Origin: a virus
Lineage: Duplodnaviria > Caudoviricetes
DNA length: 34,814 bases
Strand: one strand, 5' to 3'
IMG/VR virus record: IMGVR_UViG_3300011335_000821
Coordinates: 1 to 34,814 of that record
Positions 1,065 to 34,814 of the stretch are shown here, in pieces. How positions within the stretch are numbered: the first letter of the stretch is position 1; each line of letters opens with the position of its first letter. Made by a program: the position numbers and the translations under genes. The notes under the pieces were generated by a model. That model saw nothing but the letters and a program-made list of their open reading frames with translations, was not told the origin of the DNA and made no database searches.

Positions 1065-1849
1065 AATATATCAAAGCAGGACACGATAGGGAACTTAAAG
1101 AAATTATTTTATTTCCAATTGGTGATTTGCATATAGGTTCTCCACACTTCGATAAAAAAGAATTAATAAATCAGTTAAAATTAATTGATGCAAACAGGGA
1201 TAAAGCACGAATCATCATTATGGGGGATTTAGCCGAAACTGCATTGAAAGATTCAGTTGGAGCGGGTGTGTATGAGCAACAAGAAAATGCACAACAACAA
1301 ATGATGACAGCCAAGGTTTTGTTATACCCTTACAGAGATTTGATTGATGGCATTGTAACTGGTAATCATGAAGAACGAACTTATAAAAATTCTGGATTTG
1401 ATTTAATGTTATACTTTGCACAGATCATGGAATTAGAAGACAAATACATGAGATATCAAGGAGTAATTAGTTACACAATTTTCAAAAGGGACTTTAATGT
1501 TTCTGTTTGGCATGGTTCAGGTGGTGGTGGTACTGCTGGTGGGGCAATGAATCGTTTACAGAAGCAAGCAGATACTGTGTTCGCTGATTTATATCTTATG
1601 GGACATGTTCACAGAAGACAAGCACATACAAAGGTAATGTACGTGCCTGATAACAGGAATGGTAAAATAGATTTGGTGAAGCAGGTATTTGTAGTTACAG
1701 GTTCAGCACTTACTCATGAAGGTTCTTATGCAGAAATGGCAGGATTTGCACCAACGGAAAAAGGATTTCCTAAAATAACATTATCCGTTGAAATGCAGGT
1801 AAAAGGTAATTTTAAATTAAGAAAAAAAATAATAAAGGTGGAGATATAA
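1061..1849 (+). CDS. Calcineurin-like metallophosphoesterase
   Basis: All five metal-binding motifs are present in order: GDLHIG, MGDL, GNHE, WHG, GHVH. Confidence 0.9.
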   Translation: MKYIKAGHDRELKEIILFPIGDLHIGSPHFDKKELINQLKLIDANRDKARIIIMGDLAETALKDSVGAGVYEQQENAQQQMMTAKVLLYPYRDLIDGIVTGNHEERTYKNSGFDLMLYFAQIMELEDKYMRYQGVISYTIFKRDFNVSVWHGSGGGGTAGGAMNRLQKQADTVFADLYLMGHVHRRQAHTKVMYVPDNRNGKIDLVKQVFVVTGSALTHEGSYAEMAGFAPTEKGFPKITLSVEMQVKGNFKLRKKIIKVEI

Positions 1850-2043
1850 TGGAAACAAATATCTTTCTAGAAATAGATTTTGAAGATTGGTTCGATTATA
1901 TGTTTGAAAATTTAATAAAGAATGGGTTTGTAGCAGATGAAGAATTTATAGTTTTTTTTATGGAAACAAGTTTAAATTTTTTTGAAGAAAGAAGTTTATT
2001 TTCAAAAGTCGATATGAATGAAGGAATAGAATATGACGATTAG
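1849..2043 (+). CDS. Small acidic hypothetical protein
   Basis: TAATG stop/start coupling with the upstream gene, RBS GGTGGAG, D/E/F-rich 64 aa. Confidence 0.75.
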   Translation: METNIFLEIDFEDWFDYMFENLIKNGFVADEEFIVFFMETSLNFFEERSLFSKVDMNEGIEYDD

Positions 2044-2045
2044 TT

Positions 2046-2492
2046 TTATTTATTTTTATTCAGAATAAAATTCAATGCAATTTTAGGTATATTAATTTTT
2101 TTAGCTAATTCAGTTCTTTTCATAAATTTATTTTCTTCTAGAATTAAATACTGCAGACTAGTAATTTTATAATTCATCATTTTATTTAAAAATCCATCTT
2201 CCGAAAAATCACTTTGATTAATTTCGGAACTTGTTTTTTCTAAATTTAAATTGTGTCCTTCTTGAATCAACTGTCTTAGTAATCTGTACAACCTTTCTTT
2301 AGATACTTGCAATATTCTTGACATTCTATTTCTTGAAATTTTTTCTGAAGTTAATCTTAGGATTTCTTTTTTTAATTTATTATCCTCTGAAATTGTTTTA
2401 ATTTGTGCTTCTGTTAACTGTGTGGATTCTTCTAAGTATACAAGATCATATGATTGTCCTTGATATTTTGGTAATTCGAGTTCTTCATTCAT
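2046..2492 (-). CDS. HTH-containing protein (possible late regulator) with an N-terminal TerL-like peptide
   Basis: RBS AAGGAG. Two HTH-like segments (SRNRMSRILQVSKERLYRLL; KRTELAKKINIPKIALNFIL). Residues 10-36 match TerL residues 109-135. Last gene of the leftward arm. Confidence 0.7.
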   Translation of the reverse strand: MNEELELPKYQGQSYDLVYLEESTQLTEAQIKTISEDNKLKKEILRLTSEKISRNRMSRILQVSKERLYRLLRQLIQEGHNLNLEKTSSEINQSDFSEDGFLNKMMNYKITSLQYLILEENKFMKRTELAKKINIPKIALNFILNKNK

Positions 2493-2509
2493 TTTTTTTC
2501 TCCTTTTAT

Positions 2510-3001
2510 TTAACTATTTGGTAAAACTAAAACTTTTAATTTTTGACGACCGAATATCTGAGCGTCCATTAAATCTTCCATGTAAACATCTAACTTTCCT
2601 TCTGCAATTGCTGAGCCTCTATCCTGACATGTAAAAACCGTATCAAATGCAGGGATATACACTTTTATGCCAAACTCAAAACTGTATGGACAAGCTAAAG
2701 TAATTCTTTCAACTGCCATTTCTCCACTTGCTGTCACTCCATAGGCTTCGTGTCCTTCTCTTTTACCCGTTGATTCATACCCTGCTGTGTAAGCCGTAAC
2801 TTCAAATTCTTCGTAATCACTTATTAATTTTTTAATATACACAATTTCTTTTTTTGGGACATATACGATTTCCTTTTTAGAAACAGTTGGTTCTGATTTG
2901 ACAACATTCCAAGCTAATTTAACAACAAATACTAAACTATAACTTAAAATTAAAATTAAAAAAATCCAACAAAAAATACTCATTAGTATTCTTTTTATCA
3001 T
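2510..3001 (-). CDS. Membrane-anchored 3D-domain (MltA-like) cell-wall protein
   Basis: N-terminal hydrophobic helix, then EVTAYT...TASG...DRGSAI...KLDVY typical of the 3D domain. Confidence 0.88.
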   Translation of the reverse strand: MIKRILMSIFCWIFLILILSYSLVFVVKLAWNVVKSEPTVSKKEIVYVPKKEIVYIKKLISDYEEFEVTAYTAGYESTGKREGHEAYGVTASGEMAVERITLACPYSFEFGIKVYIPAFDTVFTCQDRGSAIAEGKLDVYMEDLMDAQIFGRQKLKVLVLPNS

Positions 3002-3009
3002 ATTTCACC

Positions 3010-3657
3010 TTACTTTCCATATAAATTATCCATATTTAAACCATCTTCTAAACTTTTTTGATAATATTCTTTGAAATATTTTTCAGTAACTTCAAAATTA
3101 GATAAATGTCCAAAACCTGTTGTGGTATCGCAATACATTTTCACTCCTGCTTTTTTTAACTTTAAACAAAAAGTTAAATCTTCTCCAAGTCCTCGTTTAG
3201 GAAAAAAATATGGTTTTTTTAAATTTTTAAAAACTTCTCTTTTGATTAACACACAAGCCATTCCCGCACCTTCGATTTCTAGAATCCCTTCACTGTAATC
3301 AATAGGAACTTCTAATAATGGTTGATTATTTTGATACGTTAACTTTGTATAAAAACATGGTTGGAAAGGTGGTGTCCTTTTGAAAGCCATTGCTGTCACA
3401 AACGGAAGATTATATGAAGCAAGTTTATCTACATCTTTTGGTTCAAATGTCATATCTGAGTCTATGAATAGAATTGCATCACAACTTGATGCTAAAAAAC
3501 CTTCAACCATTTTTTCTCTAACATCATAAATCAAACTGCTCGATGTACAAGTGAAATCAAAGGTATGTTCACCTCTATGTCCAAACAATTTCATAAAACT
3601 AATAAATGTTGCATAGTCTACTGATCTGTGTACAGGTATTCCTACCATAATTCTCAT
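3010..3657 (-). CDS. GT-A fold (family 2-like) glycosyltransferase
   Basis: N-terminal hhhGIP strand, DxD motif in LFIDSDM, GAGMACVLIKREVF, GEDLTFC and a C-terminal GH. Confidence 0.82.
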   Translation of the reverse strand: MRIMVGIPVHRSVDYATFISFMKLFGHRGEHTFDFTCTSSSLIYDVREKMVEGFLASSCDAILFIDSDMTFEPKDVDKLASYNLPFVTAMAFKRTPPFQPCFYTKLTYQNNQPLLEVPIDYSEGILEIEGAGMACVLIKREVFKNLKKPYFFPKRGLGEDLTFCLKLKKAGVKMYCDTTTGFGHLSNFEVTEKYFKEYYQKSLEDGLNMDNLYGK

Positions 3658-4971: not shown

Positions 4972-5788
4972 TCTTTAACCTGTAATTTAAATCCTTTCCT
5001 TTTAACTCAACCCTGTAACCTCTTGTCATTTCATATATTCTGGATCCGATAGCTTCATCAAATGCAATGATTTCGTCCATCGATTTTTCTGAACTTATAA
5101 GCATTGGCAAATTGTTCATGTATCGGTAGTTAATTACCGCAAACATTTGTTCTAGCTGAAAAGCTGTGGGCTGAGTTCTACCTTTAAATAAATCGTCAAT
5201 AAACAGAACATCAATCGTCTGCATTTTATTAATCTTCGCTTCCATCTCATCAAAGTTCGACTTGATTTCATTAAAACCTTCAACGAATGGAAAGTAAAGT
5301 AAAGGTACAGCTTTTTCTAAAAGTTGATTAGCGATTGCCATTAATAGATGAGTCTTTCCGCATCCACTTTGACCTAATAACGCTGTAGAATTTACTCTGT
5401 CATGTCTTATGTCATCAAAGTTTCCTGAGTACATTATGGCACACATGTGAGCGTTACGAACGATGTCTTGAAGGTATGCAGGCGAAAAACTCTGGAAAGT
5501 TTTCTTTCGGAACTCAAATGTTATCTTTGAAGTATTTATAACTCTCTCTGCTCTACCTTGTTTAAAGCAATTACAAACTGCATAAAACTCTAATCCTTCT
5601 TCATTTTTTTTGACATAACCTCCATTATCCTGACAAATTTGACATTGATAAGTAATCGATTCCTGACGATTTTGCGAGTGCGATGTAATCGATTTGTTTG
5701 AATCTAGGTTTTGGCTCATCAGTTTCATTGCTTGTATTTTTTCTATTATCGTTTGGAAGTCCATATCCCTTAGACTTTTCATTTTCAT
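4952..5788 (-). CDS. DnaC/IstB-like AAA+ helicase loader
   Basis: Zn motif CQICQD...CNC, Walker A GQSGCGKT, Walker B VLFIDDL, IGSRIYEM. Start set at the ATG at 5788 (or 5782) after GGAAAGGG. Confidence 0.9.
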   Translation of the reverse strand: MKMKSLRDMDFQTIIEKIQAMKLMSQNLDSNKSITSHSQNRQESITYQCQICQDNGGYVKKNEEGLEFYAVCNCFKQGRAERVINTSKITFEFRKKTFQSFSPAYLQDIVRNAHMCAIMYSGNFDDIRHDRVNSTALLGQSGCGKTHLLMAIANQLLEKAVPLLYFPFVEGFNEIKSNFDEMEAKINKMQTIDVLFIDDLFKGRTQPTAFQLEQMFAVINYRYMNNLPMLISSEKSMDEIIAFDEAIGSRIYEMTRGYRVELKGKDLNYRLKSDTDET

Positions 5789-7267: not shown

Positions 7268-7618
7268 CTAGAATGGTAGATCAATATCCTTACCTGCAAA
7301 AAGAACATCATCTGTAACTAAACTGCTTGTTTTTTCTTGCAATAGTTTATCTATAATTATTCTATCCTGATAAACTTTTTTGCCGTCCTTCTCATAATTA
7401 TTATTCTGCAACTTTCCTTCAAAGTGAATCTTATCACCCTTTTTGTAAGAATTCGCAATTTGTTCTGCTAGATCAAAGAAAACAACTAAGTTAAAATAAT
7501 CTGTTTTCTTTTTAGCATCCGTGATTGAAATGCTGATTCTTGAAAATGCTGTTCCATTAGCTGAATATTTAAAATCTACGTCCTTAACTAAAACTCCTTG
7601 CATAATAAGTTTATTCAT
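7268..7618 (-). CDS. ssb: Single-stranded DNA-binding protein
   Basis: MNKLIMQGVL..D, KKGDKIHFEGKLQNNNYEKDG, acidic tail DIDLPF. Confidence 0.93.
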   Translation of the reverse strand: MNKLIMQGVLVKDVDFKYSANGTAFSRISISITDAKKKTDYFNLVVFFDLAEQIANSYKKGDKIHFEGKLQNNNYEKDGKKVYQDRIIIDKLLQEKTSSLVTDDVLFAGKDIDLPF

Positions 7619-8406
7619 TTTGAACCCTCCATAATTTTTTTTCTCATTTCTTCTATTATCATTTTTTTTGTCATCCTACGAATGTTAGACCAATAATCTG
7701 AGTATTCTTTTTTTGCTTGTATTTTTTCTTTTATTGCTTGAAAGTCCATTTCCTTTAGATTTTCTTCTATTATTTCATTTTTTTCATCCATTAAATCTTT
7801 CCTTCTTTCATTAATTTTTTCTTTTATTTCGTATCTTTTAATTTCTCCCTTAGGATAAGGTAGGATAGGATAATTTAATTTATTCGTTATGCTTTTATTG
7901 CAACCATGGAATAAAACGTATCTATATTTTGAACTTCTGGTAACTCTTTCTGTCTTTACTCCTTTGTGGTGTCTAGAGTGCTTTCCAAATCCTGCTGAGA
8001 TATCTGTTCTTTTTTTTGTAATTCCTGTAAATAAAAAATTGCTTGCTTGATAAATGTAACCGATATGATTCATTTCAGAATCTGCATAAGACACAATAAT
8101 GAGTGGTTTCGGAAGTAGCTTTATGCATTTAGCTATAAAATAACTAGCTGTGTTTTTGGGTAATCCTTCAAAGATAACCAAACGATTTAATTCGATGACT
8201 TTTTTTTTATTTTCTTCACCACAAATCCCTTTACACAAACTAGGACTTGCAGGTGAACCGAAAGAACAAATTCCAACTAAATTTTCTTCATGAACCAAGC
8301 CGTAAGCGTAAGAAATTGAAGGCATCCGTTTGGCATAATGAATTCCTAATAAAAATGGTTTTGTATCTTCATATGATACTTTTTTAACTTCAAGATTTCT
8401 TATCAT
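7615..8406 (-). CDS. Mom-family (GNAT-like) adenine-modification protein with a C-terminal extension
   Basis: HY...LVGICSFG.P, IELNRL, PKNTASYFI, IVSYAD...HIGYIYQASNF.FTG, K.RYV match Mu Mom-like proteins. Confidence 0.8.
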   Translation of the reverse strand: MIRNLEVKKVSYEDTKPFLLGIHYAKRMPSISYAYGLVHEENLVGICSFGSPASPSLCKGICGEENKKKVIELNRLVIFEGLPKNTASYFIAKCIKLLPKPLIIVSYADSEMNHIGYIYQASNFLFTGITKKRTDISAGFGKHSRHHKGVKTERVTRSSKYRYVLFHGCNKSITNKLNYPILPYPKGEIKRYEIKEKINERRKDLMDEKNEIIEENLKEMDFQAIKEKIQAKKEYSDYWSNIRRMTKKMIIEEMRKKIMEGSK

Positions 8407-8418
8407 TTTTTTTATCCA

Positions 8419-8937
8419 TTATATTTTACCCTCTTTCATTAATTTTTTTGTTAAACCTTCTTCTAGCTGAGAAATGGTATATCCTCTTGTTTTGGAGGTT
8501 TCAAACCATTCTTCAAACCCTTCTAGATCACCCTTTCCAAGCTGATATTTTGCCTTTAATGCTGAAGGTGCAGGCTTGTCTTTCTCACCCTTTAAAACTT
8601 CCTGAATATCAATTGCATTTTCAACTTCCTCACGACTTGCAACACCTCGTTTGATTTCTAGACCAAGGTTAGCAAGGCATCTGCCAACCACAGAGGTTTC
8701 ACAGTTTTCTAAGGCTGAAGTCTTGTTGATGTAACTAGACCCTTCTTTTTCAAACGCATGACCTGTAGAGCTAATTACGTTCGTCTGATCCCTATAAGCA
8801 TAAGCTTTCATGATGATGATCCCGTCATTCCAACTTATCAATTCTGTATTTATTCTGCCTTCTGGGTAGAGTTCATAAAATTTTAAGATTCTTTCGTTTA
8901 CTGTAATGTAATCTTTTAAAATATCTTCTTTTGACAT
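8419..8937 (-). CDS. Rad52/Sak-like single-strand annealing protein
   Basis: DYITVNERI..F, STGHAFE....INKTSALENCETSVVGRCLANLG; lies close upstream of ssb. Confidence 0.72.
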   Translation of the reverse strand: MSKEDILKDYITVNERILKFYELYPEGRINTELISWNDGIIIMKAYAYRDQTNVISSTGHAFEKEGSSYINKTSALENCETSVVGRCLANLGLEIKRGVASREEVENAIDIQEVLKGEKDKPAPSALKAKYQLGKGDLEGFEEWFETSKTRGYTISQLEEGLTKKLMKEGKI

Positions 8938-10069: not shown

Positions 10070-10276
10070 TTACTCTTTTATGAAAGGCTGAATTTTGAAA
10101 GCAATCTCAAAAAACATGATTTCGCATAAAGTTTTCAAATCATTGAATTCAATTTTGATGATCTGACTTTGATCTTCAATCATTATTTCAAATCCAGTTT
10201 CAACTTTATTGATATTTATTTCAGAATATTTTTTTAAATTTATTACATGATAACTTTTTTCCATAGTAGCCGCCAT
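10070..10276 (-). CDS. Hypothetical early protein
   Basis: RBS GAGGAG; shares HVINLKKY with the upstream gene. Confidence 0.7.
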   Translation of the reverse strand: MAATMEKSYHVINLKKYSEININKVETGFEIMIEDQSQIIKIEFNDLKTLCEIMFFEIAFKIQPFIKE

Positions 10277-10296: not shown

Positions 10297-10527
10297 TTAT
10301 AAAGTTTTAGAAAAATCAGAATTTTTAATCAGTTCTTCGATTTCTATAGAATTATAAATTTCTTTACTATTACAGTTCTCATCGCCTTTTTTATGAGAGT
10401 AGCTTCCGCAATCCTCGCATACTGTTTTGTGCCACTCTGTATATATAGAAACTTTCTTTTTTTCTAATTTTAAAAAATTTATTACTTCAATATATTTTTT
10501 TAAATTTATTACGTGAATCCTTTCCAT
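10297..10527 (-). CDS. Hypothetical early protein with a CxxC...H...C motif
   Basis: RBS AAGGAGTG; CEDCGSYSH...C. Confidence 0.7.
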   Translation of the reverse strand: MERIHVINLKKYIEVINFLKLEKKKVSIYTEWHKTVCEDCGSYSHKKGDENCNSKEIYNSIEIEELIKNSDFSKTL

Positions 10528-10830: not shown

Positions 10831-11286
10831 CTAAACTTCATATCTTTTGAAACTTTTTTTATAACTTTCCTCGTAACTTTTTTTCAAGATATTAAATTCA
10901 ATTTTATTTTGCAAAAAACCTTTTTTAATTTTTAAAAAATAATCATCATCTGGTACATCAAAGCCATAATTCTCGGTTAGAAAGTAAACATTGCAAAAAA
11001 CATTTTTATTTTTTGAAATTATTTCTTTAATTTTTCTTTCATAAATATCTGGAACACCCTCGTAATAGTCTAGAATTTTTTCTTGTTTTTTACTTAGATC
11101 ATAAATCACTCCATAAACTGCATTATCTTTTTCTGGGATTATGTTTGCAACTGTTTTGAAATTTCCGTTCATCTGAAAACACAAACTATAATCTAATAAT
11201 TTTGCTGTACCCACAATTTTGCTTTTGCCCACTCTTTCAAACATCTGTTCCTGCAAAGTGTTACTGCCGTATGCAAAGTAAAACAT
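10831..11286 (-). CDS. Gamma-glutamylcyclotransferase-like protein (YFAYGSN type)
   Basis: MFYFAYGSN..QM..R, ANIIP...VYGVIY...LDYYEGVP..Y. Confidence 0.9.
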   Translation of the reverse strand: MFYFAYGSNTLQEQMFERVGKSKIVGTAKLLDYSLCFQMNGNFKTVANIIPEKDNAVYGVIYDLSKKQEKILDYYEGVPDIYERKIKEIISKNKNVFCNVYFLTENYGFDVPDDDYFLKIKKGFLQNKIEFNILKKSYEESYKKSFKRYEV

Positions 11287-11302: not shown

Positions 11303-11668
11303 TTAAAAATTATTTTTTAATAATTGATGATTCTCTAAAATATCCAAATTATAAATGTAAATAAAAGCTTCAACCTCTTTATTTTTTAAGATTATTTTTT
11401 CATTTTTTCTTTTGTATAAATCGAATTCATCTCCTGAGTACCCTTCTAACATGTCTAATTTTTTTAATATTATTTTTTCATTTTTTTCAAAGGAATATAA
11501 TTCGCCTTTAACAATATCATTTTCTAAACCTGCAACCACCATTGGAAAAAGTCCGTTTGTGTAAATTTTATATCCTCTGACGTAACCATGTTTCATACTT
11601 TTGTAACCTGCCATCAAATAATGATTGTATTTGTTTCTTTTAAGCGTTCCGTAAACAAAGATGTTCAT
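11303..11668 (-). CDS. Gamma-glutamylcyclotransferase / AIG2-like protein (FVYGTLK type)
   Basis: IFVYGTLKR...NH, FPMV...VKGELY...LDMLEGY...Y.R; RBS AAGGAG before the ATG at 11668. Confidence 0.9.
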   Translation of the reverse strand: MNIFVYGTLKRNKYNHYLMAGYKSMKHGYVRGYKIYTNGLFPMVVAGLENDIVKGELYSFEKNEKIILKKLDMLEGYSGDEFDLYKRKNEKIILKNKEVEAFIYIYNLDILENHQLLKNNF

Positions 11669-11700
11669 TTTTTTCTCCTTTTTTTTCAAAAAATAATTTT

Positions 11701-12380: not shown

Positions 12381-12695
12381 TTAGTTATTGTAGTTTTCAA
12401 TGTATCTTAAATAATGATCCATGTCGTCAACAAACTCGTAAAAATCACTGATTTGGTAGACGGAATCAAGAAAAAGTTTTCCATTTCCGTCAATGATTAT
12501 TGATGCTGTTTCGTCACCGTGTTGCGAATGTTCTAACAAAAAGTAAACTTGATGTTTGTAGCTAAATTCGTGTATCACGTGCCAAGTGCCTATAAATTCT
12601 TTAACTCTAATCCCTGTGGATCCGATTGTTTTTCCGGACACCATAGCCTCAAACTCTGTATCAAACTCTTTGCTTACCATTGACAAGATTAACAA
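12381..12695 (-). CDS. Hypothetical protein resembling a large-polyvalent-protein-associated domain
   Basis: GTWHVI...FLLEH...GDE.A.III...G pattern recalled from polyvalent proteins of Bacillota conjugative elements. True start may be 12686 or 12680. Confidence 0.55.
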   Translation of the reverse strand: MLILSMVSKEFDTEFEAMVSGKTIGSTGIRVKEFIGTWHVIHEFSYKHQVYFLLEHSQHGDETASIIIDGNGKLFLDSVYQISDFYEFVDDMDHYLRYIENYNN

Positions 12696-12719
12696 CTCCT
12701 TTTTTTATCTTATAATCTT

Positions 12720-12748
12720 ATTATATAGGTTTATATGTAATTAGTCAA
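12720..12748 (-). promoter_or_regulatory. Strong sigma-A-type early promoter
   Basis: TTGACT, 17 bp spacer, TATAAT, with AT-rich upstream DNA. Confidence 0.8.
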
Positions 12749-12794
12749 CATATATTTATATTGTTTATTAAATAGATAAAATTAAAAGTGACTA

Positions 12795-13110
12795 TTTTTT
12801 GAGAAAATAAATTTAATTTTTTTTGTTGCACGCTGCAGATCTTACTTTTTTTAAAAAAATAAATTGAAATTCGTGCGAAGCAGCTCTTTGTTCATATTTT
12901 TTTAAGAAAATAAATTGAAATAAATTATAGTTAATCTTTTTTTTGAGAAAATAAATTAATTTTTTTTGAATTTATAAACATGGTCAATCATTTTTGAGAA
13001 AATAAATTCATTTTTTTTGAAGTGTTGGAGATAGTTAATCTTTTTTTGAGAAAATAAATTGAAATAATTTATGGTCAATCATTTTTTTGATAAAATAAAT
13101 TGAAATAAAT
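12795..13110. repeat. Seven-copy phased array of T(5-8)-RA(G/A/T)AAAATAAATT
   Basis: Cores start at 12801, 12853, 12904, 12945, 12996, 13048 and 13089. Confidence 0.9.
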
Positions 13111-13138: not shown

Positions 13139-13967
13139 AAATGTAAAACTCTTTGTAATCATCAAACGATAATTGTAACTTTTTGAACATCGCCTCGATG
13201 TTATCTATTGTTGGTGTGCGTCTTGCAAAGGTGTCAAGCACCTTAAACGAACTTGCTTTATACATCAATGCGTTCGTAAATTCAATCCAACGCACTGTAT
13301 CGTCTATGTCAAGCGTTGATTGCATTGCTCTAAACTCAAGCGTTCTATGCCTATTTTTAGATGCCACGTTTATATTTCGATATCTTATAGACGTGTTCGG
13401 GTTTAATTTTTCTGAGTCGGGCGTATAAATTTCCTCATCCATAATCAATTTTTCATATCTATCTAGTACGATACTATCAATCATATCATCAAATTGTCCG
13501 TCTATAGATGTGTATGGCTTACAGTAGCCGTTGTGTAGGCGTTTTTTTCCTACAAGGTCTTTGATCAGATGATCTGACTGTGCATAATACTTCATCACTT
13601 TGACAATATCAGACTTTGTCAGGTCGTTTGTAGCTAAGTCATGATGTATGTGTAAGCCACACGTATCATTAAATTGTACAGCACACTTTTTATTCAAGAC
13701 GGCTTTAATTTGGCGTAAATGACTTGTAAACTTTGATAGGTCTGTATACGGACGTGAGACCAGTTCATATCCATTTAAACCGCTACCTCTAACGCTACCA
13801 TCAGTTACTATCTTGTAGTCGCTAGTGACGCTATTGTGTCCGTACGGTTGATACTTTACGTCTATACCTGTTAGCGTTGTGATCCTATCGGCTACAGATG
13901 TACCATTCATCGTTGTCAAAAACTCTAGTTCATAGCCAAATTTAATTTGTCGTGTCATTTTAATCAT
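13137..13967 (-). CDS. Putative amidoligase (COOH-NH2 ligase, Amidoligase_2-like)
   Basis: FGYELEF, DGSV, GYELVS, CGLHIH, RYRNINV and TLEFR appear in the expected order. Confidence 0.88.
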   Translation of the reverse strand: MIKMTRQIKFGYELEFLTTMNGTSVADRITTLTGIDVKYQPYGHNSVTSDYKIVTDGSVRGSGLNGYELVSRPYTDLSKFTSHLRQIKAVLNKKCAVQFNDTCGLHIHHDLATNDLTKSDIVKVMKYYAQSDHLIKDLVGKKRLHNGYCKPYTSIDGQFDDMIDSIVLDRYEKLIMDEEIYTPDSEKLNPNTSIRYRNINVASKNRHRTLEFRAMQSTLDIDDTVRWIEFTNALMYKASSFKVLDTFARRTPTIDNIEAMFKKLQLSFDDYKEFYI

Positions 13968-14718: not shown

Positions 14719-16098
14719 ATGGAAATTAAAATAAATCCATATCCAAGACAAGTAGAGTTCTTTAAATCAAAAGCACGATACACAGCATATGGAGGTGCAA
14801 GAGGTGGAGGCAAATCTTGGGCGGCTAGAACAAAAGCAGTTCTTTTAGCAAGTAGATATGCAGGTATACAAATTCTATTGTTAAGACGTTCATTAAAAGA
14901 ATTAAGAGAAAACCATGTATTACCATTACAAAAGATGTTAAAGGGAGTAGCAAATTATTCTGAAATGAATAAAGAGTTTACCTTTCCAAACGGCGCTAGA
15001 ATTGTATTAGGTTATTGTTCAACAGATTCAGATGTACTTCAATACCAAGGACAAGCTTATGATGTTATCTTCTTAGAAGAAGCTACACAGTTTACAGAAG
15101 TTCAGTTTAAAACATTTACAGAGTCGAATCGTTCTAGTGGTATGATGTCTGAAAAGTTCTCTCCAAGGATGTATTTTACCTGTAATCCTGGTGGAATAGG
15201 TCATAATTGGATGAAAAGATTGTTTGTAGACCGTAGCTATATAGGTGCAGAAAAACCTGAAAATTATAACTTTATAAAATCAACTGTTTATGAAAATGAA
15301 TACTTGATGAAGAATAATCCAGAGTATGTAGAAAACCTTGAAAACCTGCCTGATGCACGTAAAAAGGCTATGTTATATGGAGATTGGGATGCGTTTGAAG
15401 GACAATACTTTGAAGAATTTAATAGAGATATCCACGTCATTGAACCATTTGATGTTCCAGACCATTGGGACAAATATGTGACTTTAGACTATGGACTTGA
15501 TATGTTAGCCGTTTACTGGATTACCATTGATACAGAAGGAACTGCTTATATCTATAGAGAATTCTGCCAATCCAATTTAATTATATCTGATGCGGCGAAA
15601 AGAATATCTTCTTTAACTAGAGAAAAAGTTAAAGTGTTTTATGCACCTCCAGATCTTTGGAACAGAAGACAAGATACAGGAAAGAGTGCGGCTGAAGTAT
15701 TTAATGAGAATGGATTATTCTTAGTCAAATCTAACAACGATAGAGTGCAAGGTTGGTACAATATAAAAGAATGGTTACAAGTATTTGATACCAAAGATTC
15801 ACAGACAGGATTGGATGTAAAGAGTACACGCTTGAAAATTTGGAAAAATTGTGCTATACTAATCAAAAATCTGCCATTATTACAACACGATGAAAAGAAA
15901 ACAAATGATGTAGCAAACGAACCTCATGAGCTTACTCATAGTCCAGACGCATTGCGTTATTTTTGCTCTATGAGACATCCTTCTTCTTCAAAAAATGATT
16001 CAAAACCAATTAGAAATGGATTTAATTCAGAAAAACCAAAAGAAAATGAATTAACAGATATGAATATACATAAATCATATGTTAATTATGGTTTCTAA
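14719..16098 (+). CDS. terL: Terminase large subunit
   Basis: PYPRQ adenine motif, Walker A GGARGGGKS, Walker B VIFLEE, coupling motif TCNP, nuclease LDYG and H.PDALRY. Confidence 0.96.
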   Translation: MEIKINPYPRQVEFFKSKARYTAYGGARGGGKSWAARTKAVLLASRYAGIQILLLRRSLKELRENHVLPLQKMLKGVANYSEMNKEFTFPNGARIVLGYCSTDSDVLQYQGQAYDVIFLEEATQFTEVQFKTFTESNRSSGMMSEKFSPRMYFTCNPGGIGHNWMKRLFVDRSYIGAEKPENYNFIKSTVYENEYLMKNNPEYVENLENLPDARKKAMLYGDWDAFEGQYFEEFNRDIHVIEPFDVPDHWDKYVTLDYGLDMLAVYWITIDTEGTAYIYREFCQSNLIISDAAKRISSLTREKVKVFYAPPDLWNRRQDTGKSAAEVFNENGLFLVKSNNDRVQGWYNIKEWLQVFDTKDSQTGLDVKSTRLKIWKNCAILIKNLPLLQHDEKKTNDVANEPHELTHSPDALRYFCSMRHPSSSKNDSKPIRNGFNSEKPKENELTDMNIHKSYVNYGF

Positions 16099-18245: not shown

Positions 18246-18986
18246 ATGGATGACAACCAAATCATTGATTCAGCATTAGAGATAACACAAGAAACACCTA
18301 GTCAAGAAACAGTTACACCTGTAATTACAAATGATAATGATTATTTAGAAATAAAATACAATAAAGAACAAATACGTATTGATAGAGAACAAGCGAAAGA
18401 ACTTGCACAAAAAGGAATGAATTACGAAAAAGCAGTAGAAAGAGCGAAACAAGAAGCAAGAGACAGTTATATATCCGAACAGGGTTATGAATGGAACGGA
18501 AAAGCAATTACTACAGAATCCGACTACCAACAAGCTTTGAAAGAAAAAGAAATGATTGAGCAGTATCAACAAAAGGATTTACCTGATGAGGTAATTCAAG
18601 AACTTGTTGAAAATAGAAAGTTTAGAGAAAACTATGAAAAACAACAAAATGAAATACAAACTAAAACTCAGAGAGACCGAGATTTTCAAAACTTCTTAGA
18701 AGCATACCCTGACACAAAAGCAGATTCTATTCCACTTTCAGTATGGGAAACCGTAGAAAAAGGGGAGAGTCTAGTAAATGCTTATATGCGTTATGAAAAT
18801 CAATTGCTCAAACAAAAACTAAATATAGAACAAAAGAATCAAGAGAATGTGAATTCATCTATTGGTGCAGTTCGTTCTTCAGGAACAATAAACCCTTTTT
18901 ATACAAGGGAGCAAGTTAGTAAAATGTCTACAGCAGAAGTAAATCAGAATTGGAAACAAGTACAAGAATCTATGAAAAAATGGTAA
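18246..18986 (+). CDS. Capsid scaffolding protein
   Basis: Acidic and helical, directly before the capsid gene; IKYNKE...ELAQKGMNYEK and C-terminal YTREQVSKMS..E. Confidence 0.82.
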   Translation: MDDNQIIDSALEITQETPSQETVTPVITNDNDYLEIKYNKEQIRIDREQAKELAQKGMNYEKAVERAKQEARDSYISEQGYEWNGKAITTESDYQQALKEKEMIEQYQQKDLPDEVIQELVENRKFRENYEKQQNEIQTKTQRDRDFQNFLEAYPDTKADSIPLSVWETVEKGESLVNAYMRYENQLLKQKLNIEQKNQENVNSSIGAVRSSGTINPFYTREQVSKMSTAEVNQNWKQVQESMKKW

Positions 18987-32957: not shown

Positions 32958-33154
32958 TGGATAATCGTTATAAAAATTATGGTCTTTGGATGTCGTTAGC
33001 ATCTTTTGTTTTTTTAATAATTCAAGAAAACGGATTTCAAATAACACCTGAAAAATGGGATGTGTATATTAATTCAATTTTATCTATATTAATCTTACTA
33101 GGTATAATCAATAACCCAAATACAAAGAACAGAGGATTTAGTGATGATAAATGA
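32957..33154 (+). CDS. Holin
   Basis: NRYKNYGLWMSL, two TM helices, LGIINNP; RBS AGGAGGAG before the ATG at 32957. Confidence 0.88.
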   Translation: MDNRYKNYGLWMSLASFVFLIIQENGFQITPEKWDVYINSILSILILLGIINNPNTKNRGFSDDK

Positions 33155-33521
33155 TAAGCAAAGAAGATTCGCTGAAGAATACTTTTTAGATTCAAATTTT
33201 CAAAGAGCGTATATGCAAGCTTATGGTAGTACAAATAAGAGAAGTTCTAGAGAAATGGGTTCTAAACTTATTAAACATCCTGAAGTCATTTTAGAACTTG
33301 AGAGAATGAATAAAGAAAGAATGGAAAGAATTAACTGGACTTCAGACGAAGTGTTAAAAGAAATAAAAGAAATTGCACATTCTGAAGATTCATCTAAAGC
33401 AGAAAAATTAAAAGCACTAGAGCTTGCCGCGAAATCTATGGGTATGTTTAGAGAAAAAGTAGAGCATAGTGGCGGATTACAAATTATACTCGGTCAAAAC
33501 ATAGAGGAATGGGCAGAATGA
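33141..33521 (+). CDS. terS: Terminase small subunit
   Basis: NDKQRRFAEEY....N...AY..AY, S.L...P.V, VLKEI.EIA, KLKALELAAK..GMF.EKVEHSG. Confidence 0.88.
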   Translation: MMINDKQRRFAEEYFLDSNFQRAYMQAYGSTNKRSSREMGSKLIKHPEVILELERMNKERMERINWTSDEVLKEIKEIAHSEDSSKAEKLKALELAAKSMGMFREKVEHSGGLQIILGQNIEEWAE

Positions 33522-34271: not shown

Positions 34272-34814
34272 ATGCCAAATTATAAAATTAAAAAAGGTGA
34301 CACATTATCTGCAATTGCTAAAAAAGAAGGAACTACAGTTTCAAAATTAATGAAATTGAATCCAACGATTAAAGATAAGAATATGATTATGTCAGGTACT
34401 AATTTAAATCTTCCTTATGATATGGGGAAATTGGAATCAAACGTAAAATCGGCTACTGATAAAGAAAAAACAGCTTCACTAAATCGACAATCTACTGGTA
34501 TAAGAGCGACATCAGCTCAAGGTTCAGCAATGGTTGAAAAAAAGAAAAATGAATTAGCTCAAGGCACATCAATGGCTGCAGATAATAAAGGTAAATCACG
34601 TTCGGGTGCAGGTGCTTTTGCACTTGGTGCAGGAACAGCCCTCGCCGCAAAGGGTATTGTTAAAAAATCTTCAAGACAAATAAAAGAAATGATATCTAAT
34701 GCTAAAGATAAAAAAATGGCAGGTTCAGTTAAAGTTGGCGGAATGTATGGAGATGTAAAAAAATTAGCAAAAAGTTCTGCTAACTACGCAAAAGTAGCAG
34801 GAAAAGTAGCAGGA
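34272..34814 (+). CDS. LysM-domain basic protein (runs off the end and continues to 366 via the terminal overlap)
   Basis: Hand-translated: MPNYKIKKGDTLSAIAKKEGTTVSKLMKLNPTIKDKNMIMSGTNLNLP is a textbook LysM; no stop before the window end. Confidence 0.92.
   Translation, partial: MPNYKIKKGDTLSAIAKKEGTTVSKLMKLNPTIKDKNMIMSGTNLNLPYDMGKLESNVKSATDKEKTASLNRQSTGIRATSAQGSAMVEKKKNELAQGTSMAADNKGKSRSGAGAFALGAGTALAAKGIVKKSSRQIKEMISNAKDKKMAGSVKVGGMYGDVKKLAKSSANYAKVAGKVAG
34524..34814. repeat. Terminal direct repeat / circular assembly overlap, right copy
   Basis: Matches 1-291 with 8 mismatches. Confidence 0.97.

Follow-up and report, generated by a model that had tools for sequence, protein, structure and literature searches.

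Among the described sensors of phage terminase, EcAvs2 encloses the folded ATPase over 2833 Å2 with a bridging ATP (PMC13601566, accessible portion), and in at least 12 of 14 STAND families the sensor wraps around the core of its target (PMC13581612, accessible portion). For the sensor Upx, the accessible text of PMC13601566 presents AlphaFold 3 models in which the terminase core strands beta1, 4, 5 and 6 are threaded through backbone hydrogen bonds in a sequence-independent manner, reports that Walker-B mutants of the terminase mostly still trigger Upx, and includes an Upx table in which 'Bacillota' occurs 271 times. The same text records that its authors raise a possible anti-defence origin for T4 vs.8, Ksap1 and Ksap2. 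In the large terminase subunit (TerL) of P74-26, a trans-acting R139 is located between alpha2 and beta3 (PMC5727402, accessible portion). Chimeric genes and mosaics produced by phage Rad52-like recombinases are described as the outcome of homology-driven exchange between genomes (De Paepe et al. 2014, PMC3945230, accessible portion).

Here we describe a small phage gene that begins with an in-frame, inverted copy of a terL segment. The window analysed was the whole virus record IMGVR_UViG_3300011335_000821, which has 34,814 bases, a G + C content of 31% and a 291-nt terminal overlap at 97%. Its genes include those for a P22-like portal, DnaC/DnaD-like loaders, SSB, RusA, MazG, Mom and an amidoligase; none of the ORFs of the window matched an integrase. 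This gene content suggests a phage of Bacillota, which we take to be podovirus-like; scans of GTDB genomes with the HTH and TerL alignments identified no relative and no host. The plus-strand block runs in the order terL, portal, capsid, tail, lysis and terS on to position 2043, and the order of lysis genes, terS and, later, a convergent HTH gene is common to loci L038, L040 and L044.

Several further features of the window were observed. The terminal overlap (1-291 with 34524-34814) is 97% and not 100% identical, which may mean that two strains were merged where the assembly is joined. The non-coding stretch before the amidoligase gene (12769-13110) contains three diverged direct repeats, each about 70-190 nt in length; they also occur in L013 and are possibly early promoters or an origin. 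The adjacent small genes 10070-10276 and 10297-10527 have a common N-terminal HVINLKKY motif (35 nt, 89%), and two gamma-glutamyl cyclotransferase-like genes (10831-11286 and 11303-11689) lie in tandem near an amidoligase.

The terL copy and the gene that carries it

Comparison of the window with itself by blastn found an 83 nt match at 80.7% identity (E 2.25e-15) between terL and the 5′ part of a 148-aa ORF on the opposite strand (Table 1). The window contains no longer inverted repeat, and a comparable self-match was found in 0 of 10 locally shuffled windows. Positions 2385-2465(-) align without gaps to terL 15043-15123(+), with 65 of 81 nt and 17 of 27 aa identical, and residues 10-36 of the ORF pair with TerL residues 109-135, which confirms the copy as the first-pass annotation of this sequence had described it. 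Only these TerL residues are present, and the copy is without Walker A. That annotation had also stated that the LEE form of Walker B was kept; this holds for the allele of the window, and LEE is present in three of the four carriers described below, carrier P0004 having LKE. The terL gene itself is uninterrupted and encodes 459 aa. The TerL model gives the donor segment a strand (115-121) and a helix (127-135) at low confidence (mean pLDDT 37.8), and a sequence search returned no relative with a solved structure.

Table 1. Positions of the chimeric ORF, its parts and related genes in the window
Feature	Position	Strand	Remarks
Chimeric ORF	2046..2492	-	148 aa; terL-derived N-terminal extension and two-HTH body
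Second HTH-like segment	2055..2159	-	Residues 112-146; best-conserved part of the family
First HTH-like segment	2256..2384	-	Residues 37-79
terL-copy part	2385..2467	-	Residues 10-36; loop YQGQ, Walker-B strand, next helix
Codons 2-9 (NEELELPK)	2466..2489	-	Part of the lineage-specific addition
Ribosome-binding site AAGGAG	2500..2505	-	7 nt 5′ of the ATG of the 148-aa ORF
Candidate single-strand annealing protein	8419..8937	-	172 aa; Slr1353_N, dsRBD-like; upstream of Mom and SSB
terL, large terminase subunit	14719..16098	+	Intact; Terminase_3/6N, PBSX-like; opens the plus-strand structural block
Donor segment in terL	15041..15123	+	TerL residues 109-135
terS, small terminase subunit	33141..33521	+	Follows the lysis genes; terL lies at the opposite end of the plus-strand block

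The 148-aa ORF is the final gene of the minus-strand early/middle block, and only 2 nt separate its stop from that of the convergent ORF 1849..2043(+). The lineage-specific addition is longer than the 27-residue match: it comprises 35 codons (2-36), in frame behind the ATG, and the ancestral start register of the HTH family corresponds to about residue 36. Codons 2-9 may be a more decayed version of terL codons 101-108, and no better source for them was found within the window. A ribosome-binding site lies 7 nt before the ATG, and after codon 1 no ATG, GTG or TTG occurs in frame until M57, so that the peptide should be translated if the gene is expressed, and the objection foreseen earlier, that translation really starts downstream of the peptide, is ruled against. 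No structured RNA was detected at the 5′ end of the gene (z 0.67), and 1700-3200 showed no excess of promoters or terminators. The convergent stops at 2043-2046 are in a region, 1700-3200, without a terminator-like site; plus-strand read-through past 2043 would be antisense to the HTH gene, and such a transcript would be 80% complementary to the terL mRNA over 81 nt (2385-2465). Antisense control of terL by a read-through transcript of this kind is conceivable.

Pfam gave only sub-threshold HTH matches for the 148-aa protein. The AlphaFold2 model has helices at 54-61/65-77 and at 112-120/126-133/137-146, so that the two HTH-like segments noticed in the first-pass annotation are borne out by the predicted helices but not by a family match above threshold. 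Residues 1-22 have a pLDDT below 50, a value which rests on only four near-identical alignment rows, and residues 28-49 form a single helix, in which residues 28-36 of the copy are joined to the first HTH helix. Searches with Foldseek (PDB, BFVD) and of the ESM Atlas returned weak generic HTH matches only, none with E<=0.001 or a score >=0.9. The HTH body probably regulates the middle region by binding DNA, and it represents a small, new family of two-HTH proteins encoded in the middle block. A late activator of the RinA/ArpU type was considered and rejected: there was no match to TIGR01636 or TIGR01637, and L041 has a separate RinA beside its syntenic HTH gene.

Other accounts of the inverted pair were also rejected. 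For a DGR TR/VR pair, at most 8 of the 16 mismatches fall at A on either reading, and no RT was found among the 61 ORFs. For a remnant of a homing endonuclease, intron or intein, the ORF gave no nuclease match, terL is uninterrupted and there were 0 Rfam matches. Phase variation was ruled out by reasoning: terL would be split if the DNA between the inverted copies were to flip. An assembly artefact was dismissed on finding the insert inside single contigs of other studies (X15, X17).

Donor and distribution of the copy

The copy differs from the terL of its own genome by 10 non-synonymous and 6 synonymous changes. At 15 of the 17 identical residues the codons are identical as well, versus 10.2 expected from codon usage (P 0.002). 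Over the 81 nt, the copy has 65 identities with its own terL, versus 64, 63, 62 and 59 with four other terL alleles. The rare codons CAG and GAG are found in the copy and in its own terL and not in L011-L013 or L015; on this sequence evidence the shared rare codons point to the terL of the own lineage as donor. On reading the flanks, we found no clear junction microhomology or target duplication, the junctions being about 20% diverged. A search for a longer donor with residues 1-40 gave six candidates, none of which scored; the own TerL was likewise not returned, hence this search was uninformative.

The segment might instead have been captured from the terL of a different, unsampled phage, with the conservative changes (see below) selected in that terminase. 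Such a capture would explain the conservative pattern directly, and K before YQG and S after it do occur in 9 and 8 of 44 TerLs, respectively. Nevertheless, it is very improbable. The pS between the copy and its own terL (0.37) is lower than that between the own terL and its 94% relatives (0.45-0.52), while the amino-acid change of the copy is ten times that between the own TerL and the same 94% relatives. Six residues of the copy are unseen in the 44 TerLs, a sample biased to close TerLs, and a degenerate pattern for the core of the copy gave 0 matches to a terminase in viral contigs.

The terL peptide was found in four of 15 rows of the HTH family, and 11 rows are without it; the 15 rows include loci L038, L041 and L044, of which L041 was added by synteny only and has a long branch. 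Only the four carrier rows match TerL significantly, and the 90% cluster of the 148-aa protein contains four carriers. The outgroups lack the peptide. P0003, which is 96% identical over the body, starts with MDIFLKK and has no extension, and its start register is that of P0025, an outgroup at 57%. A contig of run X12 has this peptide-less start too, preceded by the AAAGGAG that is also found before the ATG of the 148-aa ORF, and like P0003 it has V63I. An exhaustive search returned eight matches, seven of them family members of 113-136 aa that align from query residue 34-45; the eighth, P0027, is a repeat protein and was dropped. In the protein tree P0003 is placed beside P0001 inside the carriers (91/89), apparently on one site, S94, and loss of the peptide in P0003 is possible. 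The register that P0003 has in common with the outgroup P0025 favours gain of the peptide.

The insert was also present in contigs of three further studies, whole in X15 and X17 and in part in X16; the peptide region is uncovered in X8 and X14, and X18 gave short low-identity pieces only. None of 50,697 GenBank phage records contained a match for the ORF, and viral scans with the neighbouring genes 2510-3001 and 3010-3657 yielded zero loci. In a search of limited sensitivity, the 28 other loci that matched the peptide were all TerL frames, 26 with an upstream Walker A and 2 cut or broken; a 29th match, L037, was obtained mainly via the HTH part and was left out of this count. Among 35 short proteins with this TerL segment there were 0 fusions of the same kind, all being plain TerL fragments. 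The runs holding the locus are mostly DNA from river, lake, aquaculture and freshwater sediment, together with one coded organism label, and no RNA dataset was listed among them. When the window was compared with L038, the HTH gene (window 2046-2384; L038 4759-5100) was only about 30% identical amid flanking DNA of about 90% identity, which suggests allele swapping at the locus.

Origin and evolution of the N-terminal tail

We favour, at a probability of roughly 0.6, a recently formed chimeric gene of which the N-terminal tail is a tolerated passenger under weak constraint, drifting away from terminase. About 80-105 bases of the own terL would have been copied in inverted orientation and in frame behind the ATG, with illegitimate recombination or a template switch as the putative route of insertion. 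The frame would stay open because the HTH body, apparently having no other start, must be translated through the tail. Residues 28-36 are predicted to extend the first HTH helix, and this extension, along with the exclusion of disruptive residues from an exposed tail, would account for conservative changes in a copy that has presumably been decaying since its insertion.

A second in-frame short copy is present in the same genome, taken from the start of dnaC (5728-5778) and placed in the tail region of Mom (7713-7763). The candidate annealing protein encoded at 8419..8937, which we take to have a dsRBD-like Rad52/Sak fold, is 58% identical to the product of the gene at the same position in L044 and is a possible agent of short templated copies. 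As a background, among 80 loci (848 kb without deduplication) a dispersed self-copy of 40-250 nt was found in 10, and in 5 of these each end of the copy lies within an open frame.

Some of these self-copies, those of L008 and L009, look like intergenic hairpin repeats (L009 read). In L009 the hairpin-like repeats, of about 70-100 nt, occupy 12603-12776, 13835-13931, 15035-15320 and 18513-18731; they are also found in L008 and sit between structural genes of an unrelated GC-rich phage. In the window, the Mom-like ORF has a 31-aa stretch within 7615-7843(-) that is absent from P0022, and P0024 ends before the stretch. It consists of a 46-nt copy (89%, 8403-8448) of the end of the upstream gene plus the start region, and of a 51-nt in-frame copy (86%, 5728-5778) of the dnaC start. 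A separate 58-aa gene may have become fused to Mom once Mom had been inserted; alternatively, the stretch may have arisen as a patchwork by templated insertion.

The rate of change of the copy is close to neutral. Omega was 0.81 on the copy branch (CI 0.28-2.4, from uncorrected counts and with the two branches taken to span equal times), 0.49 among carriers (0.12-2.35) and about 0.02 for the TerL segment, the wide intervals admitting real purifying selection. The TerL segment is nearly invariant, with 1, 1, 0 and 2.5 protein changes to four relatives; with the TerL protein fixed, synonymous changes accrue on two branches and non-synonymous changes on one. The synonymous share was 0.375, which agrees with the 0.34-0.45 expected when a copy evolves neutrally and its parent is constrained. 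When the 10 new residues were looked up in 44 distinct TerL segments, a sample leaning toward close TerLs, six occurred in none, three in one and one in eight, and the six changes unseen in TerL include that of the near-invariant F of TQF. The four carriers vary at 5 of 27 sites in the peptide versus 2 of 112 in the body (P 0.003). All five of these carrier changes, including E21K in Walker B, move or stay away from TerL, and residues 10-24 are invariant in three of the four carrier proteins. Evidently, the copy has been released from the constraint of TerL.

The substitutions are nonetheless milder than those of a neutral simulation. All 10 score >=0 in BLOSUM62 (P 0.0002-0.0012; 0.0008-0.0011 with free boundaries), a probability inflated by picking the case from a very large scan, and the P for their Grantham distance is 0.034. 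Their earlier description as all conservative therefore stands as far as scores of zero or above and comparison with the simulation go, and is weakened by a score of exactly 0 for four of them (F>L, V>A, F>I, F>I). The five further carrier changes also all score >=0, with P about 0.04 (BLOSUM62) and 0.062 (Grantham), values which are free of the inflation by case picking and which count a charge reversal (E21K) as conservative. We read this mildness as weak selection on chemistry. The insert has moreover persisted through about 0.2 substitutions per site without deletion. Selection on the copy is relaxed; full neutrality is not shown, and the conservative bias remains.

The conservative bias is also what would be expected if the tail, born as debris, now tunes the HTH protein through the length of helix 1, its stability or dimerisation, or translation initiation, with chemistry selected and TerL identity not. 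The predicted helix 28-49, which runs from the copy into the HTH, the loss of all four Phe with a lower hydropathy, and the retention of the insert across studies agree with such an exaptation, as do the changes relative to terL in A fraction (from 0.37 to 0.44) and in folding energy (from -7.3 to -3.5 kcal/mol). However, the rate of change is indistinguishable from neutral, a peptide-less allele coexists, and the A shift is equally expected from mutation bias toward the 0.48 A of the body. We consider a tuning role unlikely.

Neutral recombination debris had been offered as the fallback in the first-pass annotation, and with the terL origin, the near-neutral rate and the 11 of 15 family rows without peptide it proved closest to the data. 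A tolerated passenger of this kind gives a clean, dated snapshot in which a fragment of one phage gene has supplied another gene of the same phage with a new N-terminus. The donor is available together with a sister allele that lacks the peptide and with several carriers that are diverging, and the locus is a small useful example of chimeric gene birth.

Terminase sensing, packaging and described systems

The main proposal of the first-pass annotation had been that the peptide acts as a decoy for the terminase sensors Avs1-3, or that it contacts TerL or TerS and couples gene activation to packaging. The segment does contain the loop before the Walker-B strand, and on our reading R139 of P74-26 TerL would map onto the YQG loop. 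The Avs decoy fits poorly, since EcAvs2 binds a folded ATPase over about 2800 Å2 with bridging ATP (PMC13601566, accessible portion), and in the accessible portion of PMC13581612 the STAND families envelop the target core in at least 12 of 14 cases, whereas the peptide is mostly a core strand. The copy offers neither the Walker A nor the ATP-binding folded core sheet of an Avs ligand. As to packaging, the HTH protein is not RinA/ArpU, and the RinA of L041 is separate from the HTH gene. Homologues had been expected to keep the peptide and to co-vary in it with TerL; 11 of 15 family rows are without it, and the peptide varies at 5 of 27 sites against a nearly invariant TerL segment. A decoy maintained or regained across phages would track TerL, and the peptide was seen in one lineage only, with limited search sensitivity. 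The proposed dN/dS check gave an omega of about 0.8, roughly a neutral rate. A complex prediction in which the 148-aa protein was paired with residues 1-228 of TerL, the ATPase domain, returned no answer (score 0.02) and is uninformative either way. On these grounds the Avs and packaging proposals, taken together, are extremely improbable.

Upx was the only sensor found that is described as binding unfolded terminase strands regardless of sequence, and is therefore the only one that a short peptide could plausibly engage (PMC13601566, accessible portion). A Walker-B strand that is unfolded and produced from the middle block ahead of TerL might occupy such a sensor by beta-augmentation without triggering it. 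Sequence-independent threading would fit a peptide in which chemistry is kept and identity lost and in which E21K is tolerated; the gene content suggests a Bacillota host, and Bacillota are named 271 times in the Upx table (PMC13601566, accessible portion). Set against this, the peptide offers one strand where four are threaded, and the Walker-B strand is not necessarily one of the four. A binder might equally trigger the sensor. The peptide is missing from 11 of 15 family rows, 0 of 35 short TerL-segment proteins are fused, and the rate is near neutral. Fusion to a DNA-binding protein is unnecessary for a decoy. We regard occupation of an Upx-type sensor as quite improbable. In its most novel form, itself improbable, it would be a newborn self-derived decoy, in which the phage's own Walker-B strand, made early and unfolded on an HTH carrier, would plug the sensor by beta-augmentation; selection would then keep the chemistry of the strand and not its identity, and the DNA homology to terL would be eroded.

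A literature search found no peptide ligand or inhibitor of Upx and no description of a terminase-fragment decoy, the accessible part of PMC11564622 containing nothing relevant, and the anti-Avs proteins in the accessible part of bioRxiv 10.1101/2025.06.06.658234 are unrelated to the terL peptide. Should the decoy reading hold, a peptide derived from the phage itself would inhibit a terminase sensor, something without precedent in the literature search. It would also exemplify a wider class of miniature copies that phages carry of those of their proteins that are sensed, and would directly test the predicted unfolded-strand recognition by Upx. Natural alleles with and without the peptide allow a cheap test of the decoy reading.

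Compared with the described systems, the locus has partial likenesses to several. Upx is predicted to thread four terminase strands (PMC13601566, accessible portion), whereas the peptide offers one. T4 vs.8, Ksap1 and Ksap2 are, like the 148-aa protein, phage accessory proteins with a resemblance to the terminase ATPase; they differ in being folded or predicted to be folded (vs.8 with Walker A and B) and in activating Avs2 (PMC13601566, accessible portion), while the copy, a 27-residue piece made up of a single strand and a single helix, is joined to an HTH protein. As with RinA/ArpU of Bacillota phages, a small HTH gene closes the middle block, but the 148-aa protein is without a TIGR match and has two HTH segments in about 113 aa. 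The mosaics attributed to Rad52-like recombinases or to illegitimate recombination (PMC3945230, accessible portion) share with this locus the movement of short DNA between unrelated places of phage genomes, and a candidate annealing protein is encoded here. Unlike in those mosaics, where exchange is driven by homology between genomes, no flanking homology was seen in our case, the donor is in the same genome, and the fragment moved is an inverted piece smaller than a domain.
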